Shown here: positions 862-8,045 of the stretch, piece after piece
Layout of the letters: the number at the start of each line of letters is the position of its first letter
How positions within the stretch are numbered: the stretch's first letter is position 1
IMG/VR virus record: IMGVR_UViG_2537561710_000018
Strand: one strand, 5' to 3'
DNA length: 8,074 nucleotides
Origin: a virus
Taxonomy: Duplodnaviria; Heunggongvirae; Uroviricota; Caudoviricetes
The notes under the pieces: generated by a model
Databases searched by the model: none
Seen by the model: the letters and a program-made list of their open reading frames with translations, nothing else
What the model was told of the DNA's origin: nothing
Position numbers and translations under genes: made by a program

Positions 862-1460
862 TACGCAAACTCCAGTAGTTGTGCGGCCACATTTTCAACT
901 TCCTCCTGAGAGGAGAATTTACGGAACAGAATCCAGTTCCACAGCACATTCAGTACAGATTTATAAACCTGCTGAAACTCGACTTCGTCCATATTCGCAA
1001 AAGCGATGGATTTTGCCCGACGCCCACGGCTACCGTCCGGATAAATATGCTCGGTGTAAAATCCGGCCTGAATGGTTACCCACTCGCGGAAAGCCTCAAA
1101 CGACTTTAGCAACGCCGTATCCCGGGTTCTACGAGTCGCAACGGTGTTAAGGTATTGCTCTGCGGCATCACTCAGGGCTGGCGTGTGTTCCCGACCAACT
1201 GATTCGCACAGGTAATCAACGAAACCAGACAGCAGTTCTCGTTCGCGAGGCGTGATCGCCCCACCGACCGGAGTCCAGTAATCGAATCCCAGTTGCAGGA
1301 GTTTGAAAAAACGCTTGTGGAATGCGTAGTTACGCACACGCTTAAAATCTGCGTGTATCCACTCACCTATTTTGATTTGATGCAGAAAATCGCAACTCTC
1401 CGGCGTCGCCGGGAGAAGTAAACCAGAAGAAGTTTGTTTGACCAGTTGTATATGCGCCAT
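861..1460 (-). CDS. YbcN-like DUF1367 prophage protein, 199 aa
   Basis: Long ORF with E. coli-like composition, translationally coupled to the YbcO-like gene; N-terminus MAHIQLVKQ and gene order match the lambdoid nin region. Family assignment from memory. Confidence 0.5.
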   Translation of the reverse strand: MAHIQLVKQTSSGLLLPATPESCDFLHQIKIGEWIHADFKRVRNYAFHKRFFKLLQLGFDYWTPVGGAITPRERELLSGFVDYLCESVGREHTPALSDAAEQYLNTVATRRTRDTALLKSFEAFREWVTIQAGFYTEHIYPDGSRGRRAKSIAFANMDEVEFQQVYKSVLNVLWNWILFRKFSSQEEVENVAAQLLEFA

Positions 1461-1879
1461 TTCTCAATCTCTCGATGGCGCAGTGCAGCAGATGCCAGTT
1501 GTTCAAGCTAGCACGCAAATTGTAAACCAGAATGCCAGGAAAAAACAAAACCCGCCGAAGCTGGTTGTGTGCGGTTGCGTTGAAGTCTCCTAGCCAAAGA
1601 GTAGCGGTGACCACTCCCCGCCGATAATCTTAGTTGTTTAATTTCGTAAGCTAACTAGGCTAAAAGCTCTCTGTTGTCTGCCTGTTGTACAATTAACAAA
1701 ATGAACAACGAACTAGATATACCAACGCCAGAATGGTGCAACAAATCCCAAACAACACAGCAATGCAACAATAACATATGTTATTTTCCTCTCACGGGAT
1801 TCAGTCCTGAATTCTCATAAAGCTAATCTTTTTTTAAAAACATACTGTTAGATCACATGCACTTTCTTTCTTAACATCG

Positions 1880-1907
1880 TTGACTTCGCATGCGAAGCGT
1901 TTAAAAT
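1880..1907 (+). promoter_or_regulatory. Candidate sigma70 promoter of the GHKL operon with a palindromic operator-like site
   Basis: TTGACT (1880-1885), 16-nt spacer, TAAAAT (1902-1907), about 50 nt upstream of the ATG at 1960. Perfect 14-bp palindrome CTTCGCATGCGAAG (1884-1897) lies in the spacer. GAGAG Shine-Dalgarno-like element at 1950-1954. Confidence 0.4.
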
Positions 1908-1959
1908 CAACAATTTGCACTTAAGGTATTTATTTTCCCAAACACATAGAGAGTAAATT

Positions 1960-3351
1960 ATGACTGAGAACACGACTCCAACAGCAGACTTTAGTCCTAG
2001 TAAAAGATTTTTTGTAAGTATGCTAACTCGAGATATCGACTTAAACGATGCCATACTTGATCTGCTTGATAACTGCGTCGATGGGGCTTTACGTACAATA
2101 AAAGACACAAAAAAAACTTCAAAACCATATGAAGGATTTTATGCGAAACTTACGATTAATAAAGATGTCTTTATTATAGAAGACAATTGCGGAGGTATCC
2201 CTAAAAGCTTCCGAGAATATGCTTTTAAAATGGGACGACCCCATCAAAAAGAAGAAGAAAATGAAGGCACCGTTGGCGTCTATGGTATTGGTATGAAAAG
2301 AGCCATTTTTAAAATGGGTAGAGATTGCTCAATACAATCGAATAATCCCGATGGCGCATTCACTGTAGATATAACACCTGATTGGATCGATGGTGATGGT
2401 TGGAAAATACCGATGCACGAGAGTGACTATGATAACAAAAATCCAACAGGCACAACTATAGAGATAAAAAAACTCCATTCTAATGTGGCACAAAAATTTA
2501 ATGAGAGCACATATCTTACTGATCTCTTTTTACAGATAAAACACTCATTGTCATTTATTATTCAAAAAGGATTTAAAATAGAATTAAATGGAGTTGTTGT
2601 TGAACATAATCCGATTAACATCATAACTGATCATTCTAAAATAGAACCATACATATATAAAGCTAAAATAGACGATGTTGATATCGATTTAGTTGTTGGC
2701 TTCTATAAAAATTTAGAAGATGACAATGATGATGTTTTAGAAAAAAGGAGTTCTGATGATGCTGGATGGACTGTCATTTGCAATGACCGCGTTGTTCTAT
2801 ATTGTGATAAGACACATCTCACAGGTTGGGGCTTTGCTAATGTACCAAGGTTTCATACCCAATTTATAGCAATTTCTGGGGTTGTTCGCTTTACCAGTAA
2901 AAACCCAGAAAAATTACCAATAACAACAACGAAACGAGGTGTCGATCTTAGTTCTACATTGTACAATGATGTACGAAATAAAATGATTGAAGGGATGATG
3001 CATTTTATTCGATTCACCAATCAGTGGAAAGGTGAGCATCTTGAAGAAGGGAAAAAATTACTTAAGTCAGCTCAGTCACATGAAGCTCAATCTTTATTTG
3101 AAATTACCCCACAATCAACTCCAGAAGATAAAAAAAATAACTGGTCCAACCCTAATAGAAACAAAAATGAGTGGCGATATACACCTAAGCTGCCTACCCC
3201 AGTAAAAAAAAGCTCTACTGTACGAATAATCTTCACCAGAGAGAAAGAAGATGTTAAAATTTTATCTAAATATTTCTTTGGACATGAAGATGCTAGCGCT
3301 TCTGATGTGGGGATGCAATGCTTTGATACGGTGATTGAAGAGGTGAAGTGA
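1960..3351 (+). CDS. GHKL-superfamily ATPase, MORC/Hsp90/MutL-like (Bergerat fold), 463 aa
   Basis: N-box DLLDNCVDG (2059-2085) matches ExxxNxxDA/G. G1 box EDNCGG (2179-2196) matches DxGxG. G2 box GVYGIGMK (2275-2298) matches GxxGxG. All in the canonical order and spacing within the first 115 residues. Confidence 0.8.
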   Translation: MTENTTPTADFSPSKRFFVSMLTRDIDLNDAILDLLDNCVDGALRTIKDTKKTSKPYEGFYAKLTINKDVFIIEDNCGGIPKSFREYAFKMGRPHQKEEENEGTVGVYGIGMKRAIFKMGRDCSIQSNNPDGAFTVDITPDWIDGDGWKIPMHESDYDNKNPTGTTIEIKKLHSNVAQKFNESTYLTDLFLQIKHSLSFIIQKGFKIELNGVVVEHNPINIITDHSKIEPYIYKAKIDDVDIDLVVGFYKNLEDDNDDVLEKRSSDDAGWTVICNDRVVLYCDKTHLTGWGFANVPRFHTQFIAISGVVRFTSKNPEKLPITTTKRGVDLSSTLYNDVRNKMIEGMMHFIRFTNQWKGEHLEEGKKLLKSAQSHEAQSLFEITPQSTPEDKKNNWSNPNRNKNEWRYTPKLPTPVKKSSTVRIIFTREKEDVKILSKYFFGHEDASASDVGMQCFDTVIEEVK

Positions 3352-4340
3352 TGTCTGGACAATACATTCCCTATCACTTAAGGCATAATAAGTCTATTGA
3401 TAGAGAGATTTTTCTCGAAAGCCTAAACCTCTTAAGCAAAAGACTAAATATTCAAGAATATACATATATAGGTTTTGGTGGTCCGATGCTTGAAGATTTT
3501 AGAATCATGCATAATCGTATCGCTCTTTCTGATATGATTTCTCTCGAAGAACAAGAGTCTACTCACATCAGACAAAAATATAATTTGCCTTATAATTGTA
3601 TTGATTGTAAGCTAATATCAGCTCATGACTTTATTCTTGATTATAGTTTTTCTAAACCATCAATAACATGGTTAGACTATGCCTCCCCGAAAAAAATACA
3701 AACGGATCTAGATGATATACACTTACTAAGTACTAAAGTAAGCTCTTTTGATATTTTGAAGGTCACCTTCCCCATAAATCCTAGTTCTTATTACCAACGT
3801 AGAGTTGGAGAAAGTTTAGATATTTTTAAAGAAGCTTTTATTAATTCATTAAAATCATTGCTTGGGAAAAAGTATCTTGATTTTAATCTTCAGATATCAA
3901 ATGCAGATCTTTCAGATCGTAAGATTAAAGCTCTTTTAATACGAATTATTACAAACGCTTTTAGATCAGCAATAGAACGTGGTCTTTCAGGACGTAAGGA
4001 TAAGATTCAGTATTACCCATTATCCTTAAATCAATATAATGATGGCAGTCATACCATGTTGACAATATCAGGTTTTTTCTCCTCAGAACAAGAATATATA
4101 GAGTTATCTAAGGCATGCGACCTTTCTAACTGGCAATTTTATTCAACAAATTGGGAAGACGTGCAAGAAATAGCAATACCAACACTAACAATTAAAGAAA
4201 AGATAAATTTAGATAGTAAACTGCCTGATAAAGAAGCATATCAGGCAGCCGCTGAAGAGTTCTCTTTAAACGAAAATGAACGGGATAACTATTATAAATA
4301 CTATAGGTTATACCCTAACTTCCAAAGAATTATGGTTTAA
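3351..4340 (+). CDS. Uncharacterised partner protein of the GHKL ATPase, 329 aa (candidate effector or specificity subunit)
   Basis: ATG at 3351 overlaps the upstream TGA (TGATG) with GAGGTG 6 nt upstream, indicating translational coupling. Same AT-rich codon usage as the ATPase gene. No nuclease or methyltransferase motif recognised; a glycine-rich IGFGGP segment lies near the N-terminus. Confidence 0.7.
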   Translation: MSGQYIPYHLRHNKSIDREIFLESLNLLSKRLNIQEYTYIGFGGPMLEDFRIMHNRIALSDMISLEEQESTHIRQKYNLPYNCIDCKLISAHDFILDYSFSKPSITWLDYASPKKIQTDLDDIHLLSTKVSSFDILKVTFPINPSSYYQRRVGESLDIFKEAFINSLKSLLGKKYLDFNLQISNADLSDRKIKALLIRIITNAFRSAIERGLSGRKDKIQYYPLSLNQYNDGSHTMLTISGFFSSEQEYIELSKACDLSNWQFYSTNWEDVQEIAIPTLTIKEKINLDSKLPDKEAYQAAAEEFSLNENERDNYYKYYRLYPNFQRIMV

Positions 4341-5459
4341 ATATTCGGGCTGTACTCTTTTATTTAATAAATTGTACAGCCCCTTTAATATATATTCAGC
4401 AACTATTGGTGACACGCTATTTCCTATTTGTCTGAAACTATGCCATTTAGTTACATGAAAGCGAAACCAATCAGGGAAGCCTTGTAATCTAGCAGCTTCT
4501 CTTGGTGTAATCACTCTTGGATGATAAGGGTGGATCGGCCTGACGGCTTGAAAGCTTCCTTTATCTCTAGCGGTTCCCGCCCTTAAAGTCGGGCAAAAAC
4601 CATTTGGATCTAATCTTGTAGATCTTGAAATTTTATCAGTTTCCCCAAAAGATAAGGAAGCATAACGCTCTTGGACGATTTTGCTATGTAATGTTCCGGT
4701 ACATCCAGATATGATATTATTTTTTAACTTAGCGATCGATTCTGTATCACCAACATTCCGAGGGATCTGCCCCCATAATTTTTCATAAAATCCCCCTTTT
4801 CGATCTTTTTTAATTGTTCGCCAACTCTCAGAGTCTGATTGCCAATTGGCATCGATAATATCTGGTAATCCATACAAAGCATCTTTTACAGTAACCGGAT
4901 CAATCATTTTAGGCATAAATACTTCATCTGAAATATCAAGCTTCAATGATTTTTTTACACCGATAAAAAAATATCTAGTTCGAATAGTTGGAGCACCATA
5001 ATCAGATGCTTTTACCTTGATGGGATCAAGAATATCATAATCACCGCTAACCAAATTAAATGCTTTATTTCTAATGCCAGAATATTTCTCTTGCATAATA
5101 CCTGGAACATTTTCTGCCAAAAAGAATAATGGCTGTAATTCTGATACTAAACGGTAGAAATGCATGTAAAGCTGATTCCTGCTATCATCAGGATTCCCCT
5201 TGCCTATTGAACTAAATCCTTGGCACGGAGGACCGCCAATAATACCATCTATGGGCATATCGTTTTTAAAAAAACCCTTAATTATTTCTGCATTTAGTAA
5301 AGAAACATCTTCTTGGACGTGCAAACTTCTTGGAAAATTAATTGCGTGAGTATTAATAGCATGTTGATCAATTTCAACTGCCATTTTAACATCAAATCCA
5401 GCACGTGCAGCACCAAGACTTAGACCTCCAACGCCAGAAAACAAATCTATTACATTCAT
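4308..5459 (-). CDS. DNA (cytosine-5)-methyltransferase, 383 aa
   Basis: Motif I DLFSGVGG (5424-5447), motif IV GGPPCQGF with catalytic Cys (PPCQ at 5220-5231), motif VI ENV (5106-5114), a variable TRD-like region, motif IX RVITPREAARLQGFPDWF and motif X GNSV, all in canonical C5-MTase order. Confidence 0.9.
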   Translation of the reverse strand: MNVIDLFSGVGGLSLGAARAGFDVKMAVEIDQHAINTHAINFPRSLHVQEDVSLLNAEIIKGFFKNDMPIDGIIGGPPCQGFSSIGKGNPDDSRNQLYMHFYRLVSELQPLFFLAENVPGIMQEKYSGIRNKAFNLVSGDYDILDPIKVKASDYGAPTIRTRYFFIGVKKSLKLDISDEVFMPKMIDPVTVKDALYGLPDIIDANWQSDSESWRTIKKDRKGGFYEKLWGQIPRNVGDTESIAKLKNNIISGCTGTLHSKIVQERYASLSFGETDKISRSTRLDPNGFCPTLRAGTARDKGSFQAVRPIHPYHPRVITPREAARLQGFPDWFRFHVTKWHSFRQIGNSVSPIVAEYILKGLYNLLNKRVQPEYLNHNSLEVRV

Positions 5460-5483
5460 ATAGTTGCAACGTCTCTTATTAGT

Positions 5484-5500
5484 TTCTATGTATTATAACA
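5484..5500 (-). promoter_or_regulatory. Candidate extended -10 promoter of the methyltransferase gene
   Basis: Minus strand reads TGTTATAAT (TGnTATAAT; hexamer at 5492-5497, TG at 5499-5500), about 30 nt upstream of the ATG at 5459. The -35 is weak (TAAAAC/TTAAAA). Confidence 0.4.
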
Positions 5501-5721
5501 CAACTGTTCTTGATGTTTTAACCCCATAAGATAACCTCATAAAGGCTATCCCTTGAAAATACCGGATCGCATAAATTTAATCTTTCAAAACTACTTGTCT
5601 ATTAATCGAGCAATTTAAGGTTGTTTTAGTCATGTCGATACCGACATAGTTAACTAAACCCATTTCATCGTCCAACAAATGGGGGTAATACACTTTGATT
5701 TATAGTCGGGTGGGTTTTTCT

Positions 5722-5757
5722 CTATCTGCCTTTGGTGTTCATGCCCAAGGCAGATAG
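5722..5757. repeat. Perfect 11-bp inverted repeat (CTATCTGCCTT, 14-nt spacer, AAGGCAGATAG)
   Basis: Arms at 5722-5732 and 5747-5757 are exact reverse complements. Located in the non-coding region at the right-hand composition transition of the island. No adjacent U-run on either strand, so not a classical intrinsic terminator. Confidence 0.5.
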
Positions 5758-5890
5758 CCTCAAGCACCCGCAGCAATTCTACTTAACTATCCTTTTCCCG
5801 CAAACCGTTTTTATCCCCAGCGGCAAATCGAATACACCACCAGCGCCACCGCCATCGCAATTCCTACCGTTGTGAATGCTTCAGGCCAGG

Positions 5891-6448
5891 TCATTGATTC
5901 ACCTCCTGCGGCGGTTCTGGTAGCGACATCCAGTGGGTTGCTTGCCTAAGATCATTACCCGGACTAACTGCTATACCTCCGCGCCGGAACGTGCCTCCGA
6001 GATAGCGTGCGGAATATATTAATGGCCCAGCCTCGCTATCGATATTCATCGAAATAAGCACGTTCTGGCTCTTTTCAGGCATTCGCTCAGTACAGCTTAT
6101 CCAGCCATCCAGAGTTATCGGAGATCTGGTTGACGTTTCCGAGATTTCCCGAAAATTGTTGGTTGACGAATTCTTATTTTCCCGAAAGTTTCCGGCCTGA
6201 AGCATGGCGACGCGGCAGGCGTTCCAGCCATCAGCATATGTTTTAGTTACACCGTCGAGATGGCAGGTAAGCAAATCCATTTCATCAGGCACTACCATTG
6301 CTATCGGCTCTGCTTCCAGTGATGCCAGCGCGATACGAAACACATTAGCCAGCAGGCTGTCTGAAGACTTGTTATCGTGCGCCGAGTCGCTCAGGAAGCC
6401 TGTGATGTATGATTTAATCTCCGCGCGTTCTCTGGTAATAGTGCTCAT
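5891..6448 (-). CDS. DUF551-like prophage protein, 185 aa
   Basis: C-terminal ATHWMSLPEPP resembles the conserved THWMPLPEPP tail recalled for DUF551 prophage proteins. E. coli-like composition; tightly packed with the upstream gene (2-nt gap). Confidence 0.55.
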   Translation of the reverse strand: MSTITRERAEIKSYITGFLSDSAHDNKSSDSLLANVFRIALASLEAEPIAMVVPDEMDLLTCHLDGVTKTYADGWNACRVAMLQAGNFRENKNSSTNNFREISETSTRSPITLDGWISCTERMPEKSQNVLISMNIDSEAGPLIYSARYLGGTFRRGGIAVSPGNDLRQATHWMSLPEPPQEVNQ

Positions 6449-7107: not shown

Positions 7108-7327
7108 TGTTAACCTCCTGCAACGCTACACGATACGCCTTCTTTATCCACGCCTTACTGCCATATAATTTCGTCTTCATAATAAACACACCTGCACGAC
7201 TCGCCGATATCCCCGGACAGGTTAACAGCACAGCATCCACCACACGGTTATGCTTCCGAAACTCCATTACAGTACTGCTGATAACCACCTGCCCCACCGG
7301 GCCGTAATCCTGATACAGGATTTTCAC
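7100..7327 (-). CDS. Hypothetical small prophage protein, 75 aa
   Basis: GTG start at 7325-7327 overlaps the upstream stop (GTGA), suggesting translational coupling; stop overlaps the downstream start region. No recognisable motif. Confidence 0.35.
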   Translation of the reverse strand: MKILYQDYGPVGQVVISSTVMEFRKHNRVVDAVLLTCPGISASRAGVFIMKTKLYGSKAWIKKAYRVALQEVNSE

Positions 7328-7605
7328 GCAGACACCCTCCTGTCGAAATAAACGTAGTTATTCACTATGCGCAGCGGCATGCCTAATTTTCTGGCAATTT
7401 CCCTTCTTTGCATGCCTCTCTGATGCAGTTGCCGCGCCAGCTCAATATCACGCTGAGAATATTTTGCCGACGGGTGAAAATCACCACGTAACATCATGCT
7501 GATGCCCAGCTCCCGTGCCTTCGTTCTCACTGCCGCTTCAGTTCGTCCGATAAGTGCGCCAACGCTTTTTACCTTCATCGTTCCCGCACACTGCCGGAGT
7601 ATCAT
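7324..7605 (-). CDS. Putative DNA-binding protein with two helix-turn-helix-like segments (NinH-like?), about 93 aa
   Basis: HTH-like segments GRTEAAVRTKARELGIS and RREIARKLGMPLRIVNNYV. Start placed at internal ATG 7605 (alternative 7578) because the ORF-track start at 7728 would overlap the upstream gene by about 90 nt. Confidence 0.4.
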   Translation of the reverse strand: MILRQCAGTMKVKSVGALIGRTEAAVRTKARELGISMMLRGDFHPSAKYSQRDIELARQLHQRGMQRREIARKLGMPLRIVNNYVYFDRRVSA

Positions 7606-7637
7606 GATTTCCGCCCGGCACCACGTCTTCCACCCAC

Positions 7638-8045
7638 TCACCGCTGCTGTTCTCTGGTGGCGGTAATATCCCGGAGAATATCCCGGCACTTGTTCAGCTC
7701 CCGCAGCGCGGCGCAGACTCGCTCCCACTTCTGAACCTGACCTTTTGCCCGGCGCAGCTCGCGGTTAGCCACATGCAGCGATGGTAAAATCAGACCATCC
7801 GGATGCTTTCTGGTGAACGACGGCTGTGACTGCACTGTGACCGCCACACTTTCCGTTTTTATTTCTTCCTGTGTTTCCGCTTCCCCGACTGGTAACGCAA
7901 CACCTGCTGGCTGAGGAAAGGCTTTACCATCCGTTTCCGTTATGGATGCGGCTTTCGGCTCTGCCGGTAAATCAGCGCCCGGTATGCAGTACCGAAATTT
8001 ACCGCCCTGATTCACGCGAATCAGACGCCCTTTGCTGATTGCCAT
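7638..8045 (-). CDS. Hypothetical prophage protein, 135 aa, with C-terminal predicted coiled-coil/basic region
   Basis: ORF with E. coli-like composition in the same minus-strand string. ATG at 8045 lacks a clear Shine-Dalgarno element and lies 29 nt from the window edge, so the true start may be upstream of the window. Confidence 0.4.

Follow-up and report, generated by a model that had tools for sequence, protein, structure and literature searches.

A perfect 14-bp palindrome, CTTCGCATGCGAAG, lies over the promoter of a small operon in a Rac-like lambdoid prophage, and it raises a simple question: is it a control site, to which a repressor or a DNA methyltransferase would respond, or is it an accident of a promoter spacer in one bacterial lineage? 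The preliminary description of this DNA had leaned towards the former, pointing to a classic position for a repressor operator and to the core GCATGC as a hypothetical methyltransferase target. We address the question by computational analysis of the whole stretch of 8,074 nucleotides (IMG/VR record IMGVR_UViG_2537561710_000018, Caudoviricetes), hereafter the window, and of related cassettes from other genomes, referred to below by L numbers.

The cassette and its prophage setting

Positions 1500-5894 of the window are 100% identical to prophage CP-933R of Escherichia coli O157:H7 EDL933. Homology to phage Rac ends at 1460 and resumes at 5712, and the DNA in between is a low-GC island in a prophage of about 50% GC. 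In a blastn comparison the window and L160 align over one stretch of 3652 bp (window 1875-5521) at 78.7% identity, within which the following features are found.

1875..5521, no strand: conserved mobile three-gene cassette (3.65 kb), its extent being that of the DNA homology with L160
1960..3351, plus strand: GHKL (HATPase_c_3) and transducer-domain ATPase of 463 aa, MORC/Hsp90/SMCHD1-like (Pfam PF13589, E 2.9e-9)
3351..4340, plus strand: PF20553 (Methyltransf_35) protein of 329 aa (Pfam E 2e-89; RefSeq coordinates)
4308..5459, minus strand: C5 DNA cytosine methyltransferase of 383 aa (Pfam PF00145, E 2.6e-61)
5492..5521, minus strand: methyltransferase promoter, TTAAAA and TATAAT 18 nt apart with an upstream TG (extended -10); AGTTGTGnTAnAATAC is conserved in L141, L160, L142 and L083

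The shared unit is bounded on both sides by the -35 boxes of its two promoters, that of the ATPase operon on the left and that of the methyltransferase on the right, and with its edges placed so, the cassette would bring along the signals for its own transcription and nothing else. The methyltransferase promoter (5521-5492 on the minus strand, TTAAAA - 18 nt - TGTTATAAT) is conserved like that of the ATPase operon.

The ATPase has more than 5400 homologues, and its AlphaFold model (pLDDT 83) was matched by Foldseek to the ATPase modules of Hsp90, TRAP1, SMCHD1, MORC2, MORC3 and topo IV with E values of about 1e-13. Its stop codon overlaps the start of the PF20553 gene by one base (TGATG), and the two genes are translationally coupled. 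The model of the PF20553 protein (pLDDT 88.6) resembles Trm1, BamL and other methyltransferases (Foldseek E 1e-6 to 1e-4, TM 0.3-0.4), and judged from this model the protein is a class I SAM-methyltransferase-like Rossmann fold. The C5 methyltransferase is essentially identical to PDB entry 3G7U (3g7u_A, E 1.3e-254); its gene is named Z2389 in prophage CP-933R (PMC4048457 Table S3) and has been reported to be RpoS-repressed (PMC2907692). Our literature search returned no paper mentioning 3G7U or PF20553, the defence models of PADLOC (2023) gave no match for the ATPase or for the PF20553 protein, and no nuclease or helicase domain was found by Pfam in the cassette. The PF20553 and methyltransferase genes are convergent and share 33 bp (4308-4340), and the same overlap is seen in L083, L084, L086, L092, L141, L142 and L145.

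GHKL ATPases of the MORC/paraMORC type have been described in association with DNA cytosine methylases, in operons predicted to encode restriction-modification systems (Iyer, Abhiman & Aravind 2008, PMC2292703). The present cassette resembles those systems in having a GHKL and S5-type ATPase module beside a Dcm-type methylase and in its patchy occurrence across bacteria and archaea, and differs from them in the third partner, which here is the methyltransferase-like Rossmann fold of PF20553 and not a helicase or a recognisable nuclease. Diverged relatives of the cassette are spread over many phyla of bacteria and reach at least one archaeon. At 80 distant genome loci, a PF20553 homologue adjoins the ATPase gene in 75, and a C5 methylase likewise in 75. 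The gene order varies: of 128 distant loci, genomic and viral, that were classified by gene order, 62 have the methylase gene immediately upstream in the same orientation and 49 have it convergent. Related cassettes occupy unrelated prophage and chromosomal sites, while in E. coli the region is present in 173 of 5426 complete genomes (at least 99% identity), O157:H7 and O111 among them.

Both junctions of the insert carry features of their own. On the left, a remnant of about 100 bp (1485-1583) is 84-90% identical to sequence that carries the annotation 'mobile element protein' in several phages and plasmids of E. coli. On the right, two arms of 14 nt (CTATCTGCCTTTGG / CCCAAGGCAGATAG, 5722-5757) form an inverted repeat around a loop of 8 nt; it lies in DNA 95% identical to phage Rac and, as read by eye, comes after a small hydrophobic minus-strand ORF. 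In published strand-specific RNA-seq of EDL933 (PMC4048457 Table S3) a contiguous block of about 30 genes, Z2385-Z2415, which includes the cassette, has zero reads in all 11 conditions. This probably reflects a deletion in that laboratory strain rather than silencing, and we set these zero reads aside as evidence on expression.

The promoter of the ATPase operon

Upstream of the ATPase gene, the elements relevant to the question are as follows.

1880..1885, plus strand: -35 hexamer TTGACT; TTGAC is invariant in seven aligned promoter variants and is present also in L213 and L160
1884..1897, no strand: the perfect 14-bp palindrome; its outer arms CTTC/GAAG are kept in the nearest clade, its inner GCATGC is not
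1902..1907, plus strand: -10 hexamer TAAAAT, in a conserved block TAnAATCA of which T, A, A, T, C and A are invariant in the alignment
1943..1953, plus strand: 5'-UTR block CACATAGAGAG, with CACA.AG.GAG invariant in the alignment

TTGACT and TAAAAT, separated by a 16-nt spacer, make a 10/12 match to the sigma-70 consensus, the top-listed of four such matches in the window. A Shine-Dalgarno-like GAGAG (1949-1953) lies inside the conserved 5'-UTR block, 6 nt ahead of the ATPase ATG at 1960.

For the comparison we used cassettes whose ATPases are from 87% down to 64% identical to that of the window. At the DNA level, identity to the window is 79.8% for L213 (from Klebsiella aerogenes), 78.8% for L160/L082, 77.8% for L141, 75-76% for L142 and L083, 71% for L145 and 68.6% for L092. 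The 173 E. coli genomes, being at least 99% identical over the region, carry no comparative information. The aligned promoters read as follows, with the dyad score given as the number of Watson-Crick pairs at the register of the palindrome (that of L213 was counted from its sequence).

Window: -35 TTGAC; spacer TTCGCATGCGAAG + CGTT; -10 TAAAAT; dyad 7/7
L213: -35 TTGAC; spacer TTCCCTAGAGAAG + CGAT; -10 TAAAAT; dyad 6/7
L160 (L160/L082): -35 TTGAC; spacer ATCCCTATCGAAG + CGCT; -10 TAAAAT; dyad 4/7
L141: -35 TTGAC; spacer AATCAATCAGAAG + TGCT; -10 TAGAAT; dyad 2/7
L142: -35 TTGAC; spacer TTCATCCTTCAAG + TGCA; -10 TAAAAT; dyad 4/7
L083: -35 TTGAC; spacer TTCACATTGCAAG + TGCA; -10 TAGAAT; dyad 4/7
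L145: -35 TTGAC; spacer TTAGCTGGTGAAG + CATT; -10 TAGTAT; dyad 4/7
L092: -35 TTGAC; spacer ATACTTTTATCAA + TATC; -10 TATCAT; dyad 1/7

The -35 block TCGTTGAC and the TAnAATCA block vary little or not at all among eight cassette lineages, in which the distance between them is constant; in the promoter alignment TC.TTGAC and TA..ATCA are invariant and identically spaced. The DNA upstream of the -35 and in the middle of the 5'-UTR cannot be aligned between lineages. Since the boxes are kept at the same spacing in DNA that is otherwise unalignable, the promoter call is well supported, and the earlier assignment, made from near-consensus hexamers, holds. The comparison of sequences is strong evidence that the sigma-70 promoter is real, and we infer that it is active and constitutive. 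In the nearest clade the conservation reaches beyond the hexamers, to GAAGyG upstream of the -10 and to CAAnAATTTrCAC downstream of it.

Further promoter variants were sought widely. A metagenome scan returned identical E. coli copies only, a genome scan only relatives at about 45% identity, and BLAST against phages and plasmids no close relatives; scans of viral contigs with the promoter pattern turned up, besides identical copies, one known variant and chance matches. In the more distant enterobacterial cassettes L084, L086, L088, L090 and L161 the promoters are different and contain nothing equivalent to the palindrome.

Several of the related upstream regions show motifs of other kinds. 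In L145 (4839-4856), in a cassette 77% identical, an 8+8 dyad of its own, TGGATTAT-GG-ATAATCCA, is found just downstream of the -10, and L083 has a 6/7 dyad, TGATTAT-GA-ATAAGCA, at the same place; from its sequence, this could be a different, lineage-specific operator. In the Serratia marcescens cassettes L088 (about 4860-4915) and L089 (about 4865-4905) a (CACACC)n tract lies some 90-150 bp upstream of the ATPase ATG, and its copy number differs between the two, so that the repeat could be phase-variable. LexA-box-like sequences occur about 270-300 bp upstream of the ATPase ATG in L082, L142 and L083, near small divergent genes (TACTGTATAAACATACAGTA in L142 is an example), with no counterpart in the window; at the matching position of L213, DinI and LexA_DNA_bind genes are called.

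The palindrome: chance, conservation and possible roles

The palindrome had been described as lying in the spacer between the -35 and the -10. The perfect 14-mer is there indeed, and its right end stops 4 bp short of the -10; it is not, however, wholly inside the spacer, as it begins with the final two bases of the -35 hexamer. It ends at 14 bp, A1883 and C1898 being unpaired. By dinucleotide-preserving shuffles, a window of 8 kb should contain 0.62 perfect 14-bp palindromes, with at least one in 47% of shuffles, while for the intergenic region 1615-1959 (345 bp) the expectation is 0.036 and two long perfect palindromes are observed. The 14-mer is thus unremarkable as a pick from the whole window and unusual in its local context, and statistics alone do not decide. 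The second palindrome of that region, a 16-mer (AATAACATATGTTATT, 1770-1785), lies outside the conserved cassette and overlaps the ATG and a Shine-Dalgarno-like GAGG of a 40-aa minus-strand ORF (1655-1777). The window holds five occurrences of GCATGC against 2.25 expected, and searches of it for tRNA, tmRNA and Rfam families came back empty.

The preliminary description proposed to check whether the palindrome is kept in homologous cassettes. It is not: in the seven relatives the dyads amount to 6, 4, 4, 4, 4, 2 and 1 of 7 pairs. Four of the six bases of the inner GCATGC are different in both of the nearest relatives, L213 and L160, and the hexamer is found in no other variant. Between GTTGAC and GAAG there is no invariant column, and the centre of the palindrome is the most variable part of the promoter; of the 21 inner pairs that the seven relatives offer, three in each, 7 are complementary, near the random expectation of 25%. 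The arms CTTC..GAAG are confined to the nearest clade, where they are identical between the window and L213 and keep three of four pairs in L160. The outer pairs show no co-variation across the variants. In L141 and L092 the left arm is gone while the promoter persists, and the right arm (GAAG or CAAG) is nevertheless present in seven of the eight variants. Its conservation appears to be independent of dyad symmetry, given that L141 keeps it without a left arm, and it could possibly belong to a stretch contacted by RNA polymerase just upstream of the -10.

The alternative that withstands these data best is a lineage-restricted operator, in which a dimeric protein of the host, the prophage or the cassette would bind CTTC-N6-GAAG and repress the ATPase operon. 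The arms lie about one helical turn apart, centre to centre, which would lay the binder across the -35 and the spacer, with the palindrome of E. coli as the high-affinity version of the site. An inverted repeat of 7+7 bp overlapping the core promoter at its -35 and ending so near the -10 would be ideally placed to occlude RNA polymerase; it is improbable in so short an intergenic region; and the outer arms have been retained in the nearest clade despite some 20% divergence of the DNA. In L213, moreover, the centre reads CTAG for CATG, a symmetric change. This symmetry of arms and centre in the nearest clade is weak support in our reading of the sequences, with three lineages and a chance of about 0.16 for two of three inner pairs.

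Against an operator stand the lost left arms, the lack of co-variation and the absence of a cognate regulator from the cassette, although this unit moves between unrelated prophage and chromosomal sites. No HTH family was detected in the ORFs of 1438-5875, nor does any ORF there, outside the three cassette genes, match any family of Pfam or PHROG, which bears out the earlier remark that the island encodes no C-protein-like HTH regulator; no C gene was seen either among the called genes of the related cassettes that were fetched. The structural models of the ATPase and of the PF20553 protein match only GHKL/Hsp90/MORC-type ATPase and class I methyltransferase folds. Among the neighbouring prophage genes there are proteins with weak HTH matches, for instance ORF 7324-7728, which could supply a binder. 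Further copies of the site are missing: even with three mismatches allowed the 14-mer occurs only once in the window, the half-site TTCGCA occurs in it at chance frequency and is absent from 5460-5700, and neither a copy of the palindrome nor a half-site is found at the methyltransferase promoter. The family as a whole has no tendency to upstream palindromes; at 66 distant loci whose ATPase gene has an upstream region to itself, palindromes are not enriched over shuffles, 6% of the loci reaching p<=0.05. On this evidence the repressor-operator reading of the preliminary description is not sustained, and we consider a lineage-restricted operator unlikely.

Control by methylation is harder still to reconcile with the comparison. 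It would have the C5 methyltransferase recognise GCATGC, or a site nested in it, so that 5-methylcytosine in the spacer tunes transcription of the operon in the manner of CfrBI. GCATGC is a 6-bp palindrome within the spacer, with cytosines on both strands, and promoter-methylation control does exist in restriction-modification systems (review PMC12707154); the locus is like CfrBI in having a short cytosine-bearing palindrome inside a promoter near a DNA methyltransferase gene. In CfrBI, however, the promoters are divergent and overlapping, while here the genes are convergent and the promoters (1880-1907 and 5492-5521) lie 3.6 kb apart. The candidate site is also missing from all related promoters, which share no palindromic 4-6-mer outside the hexamer boxes. 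The methyltransferases of the related cassettes are 65-83% identical to that of the window, collinear with it and well conserved in their target-recognition regions, and to judge from their sequences they probably share one specificity. As these enzymes are alike through the target-recognition region and GCATGC occurs only in the window's promoter, the earlier suggestion that GCATGC is the methyltransferase target is argued against. In most of the wider family the methylase gene immediately precedes the ATPase gene within one operon, and the latter lacks a separate promoter. We also count against a methylation switch that C5 enzymes are not known among the methylases of the GCATGC (SphI) type. 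Taken as an analogy with CfrBI, such a switch would be very unlikely here.

If both kinds of control are considered together, namely that CTTC-N6-GAAG is a true operator or a methylation-sensitive site by which a host, phage or cassette factor would switch the cassette off, with the E. coli palindrome as its tightest version, we still regard the proposition as rather improbable.

A purely structural role, in which a hairpin or cruciform would terminate or pause transcription, for example minus-strand read-through from the phage early-right or methyltransferase direction, is hardly credible: a stem of 5-6 bp with a 4-nt loop can form on either strand, and early-right and methyltransferase transcription do run on the minus strand, but at -5.9 to -7.1 kcal/mol the hairpin has little stability (z-scores of -0.5 and -0.8 relative to shuffled sequence), and its stem is not conserved. 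An intrinsic terminator was rejected as well, given the weak hairpin, the lack of a U tract on either strand and the absence of a call by the terminator scan.

The locus was also compared with other known systems. Operators of the MerR family (copA/CueR, zntA/ZntR, merT/MerR) occupy over-long spacers of 19-20 bp with dyads of 18-22 bp. The likeness is that of a dyad which starts at the 3' end of a TTGAC -35 and fills the spacer, and the arms CTTC..GAAG recall the CueR site CCTTCC..GGAAGG. A MerR-type operator was nevertheless discarded, as the spacer here is 16 bp, the dyad 14 bp, and the neighbourhood has no gene of the MerR family. Inverted repeats at restriction-modification promoters are known too from the methyltransferase-repressor fusions SsoII, Ecl18kI and EcoRII and from C-proteins with their C-boxes (review PMC12707154), where they are bound by HTH domains. 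A fusion of the SsoII/Ecl18kI/EcoRII type does not fit the methyltransferase of the window, whose PF00145 match starts at residue 1: the protein begins MNVIDLFSGVGG, which is catalytic motif I, with no N-terminal DNA-binding extension, HTH or other, before it. C-protein control was likewise dismissed; the island has no C gene, and C-boxes normally lie upstream of, or overlap, the promoter of the C gene itself.

What the promoter and the palindrome mean for the cassette

From our analysis and the comparisons discussed above, it seems probable that this is an ordinary cassette promoter, in which the freely evolving centre of the spacer has, in the E. coli lineage, come to make up a palindrome by chance. 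In related cassettes the promoter is retained without the palindrome, and the latter is therefore most likely incidental and specific to E. coli. If each of nine promoter variants is given a chance of 1/64, which is our own estimate, one perfect inner hexamer among them would arise with a chance of about 13%.

We propose that the sigma-70 promoter would drive the ATPase-PF20553 operon and form the left edge of the mobile cassette. Selection may act on the -35 block TCGTTGAC, on the GAAGyG..TAnAATCA block at the -10 and on the ribosome-binding region, while the six central bases of the spacer would evolve freely; in the E. coli lineage they read GCATGC and, together with CTTC/GAAG, would yield the perfect palindrome by this route. 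The palindrome would have no regulatory role and presumably binds nothing, and the operon may be transcribed from an unregulated, moron-type promoter in the lysogen.

The proposed arrangement has a close counterpart in the moron promoters of lambdoid prophage cassettes, with which this one shares near-consensus boxes, a 16-bp spacer and a place on the border of a low-GC insert within the nin region; here the promoter is oriented against the phage early-right transcript and is conserved together with the cassette. It differs from an ordinary moron promoter in that blocks beyond the two hexamers (GAAGyG and CAAnAATTTrCAC) are conserved too.

As a regulatory element, then, the palindrome is probably unimportant. 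If an operator or methylation role were true after all, it would add one more case of a known kind of promoter control and no new principle, and it would at the same time give a first regulatory handle on a cassette that has no recognisable nuclease and whose two operon proteins match no PADLOC (2023) model. What the locus does offer is the promoter itself, which, defined by its conservation, marks the exact left end of the 3.65-kb mobile cassette.
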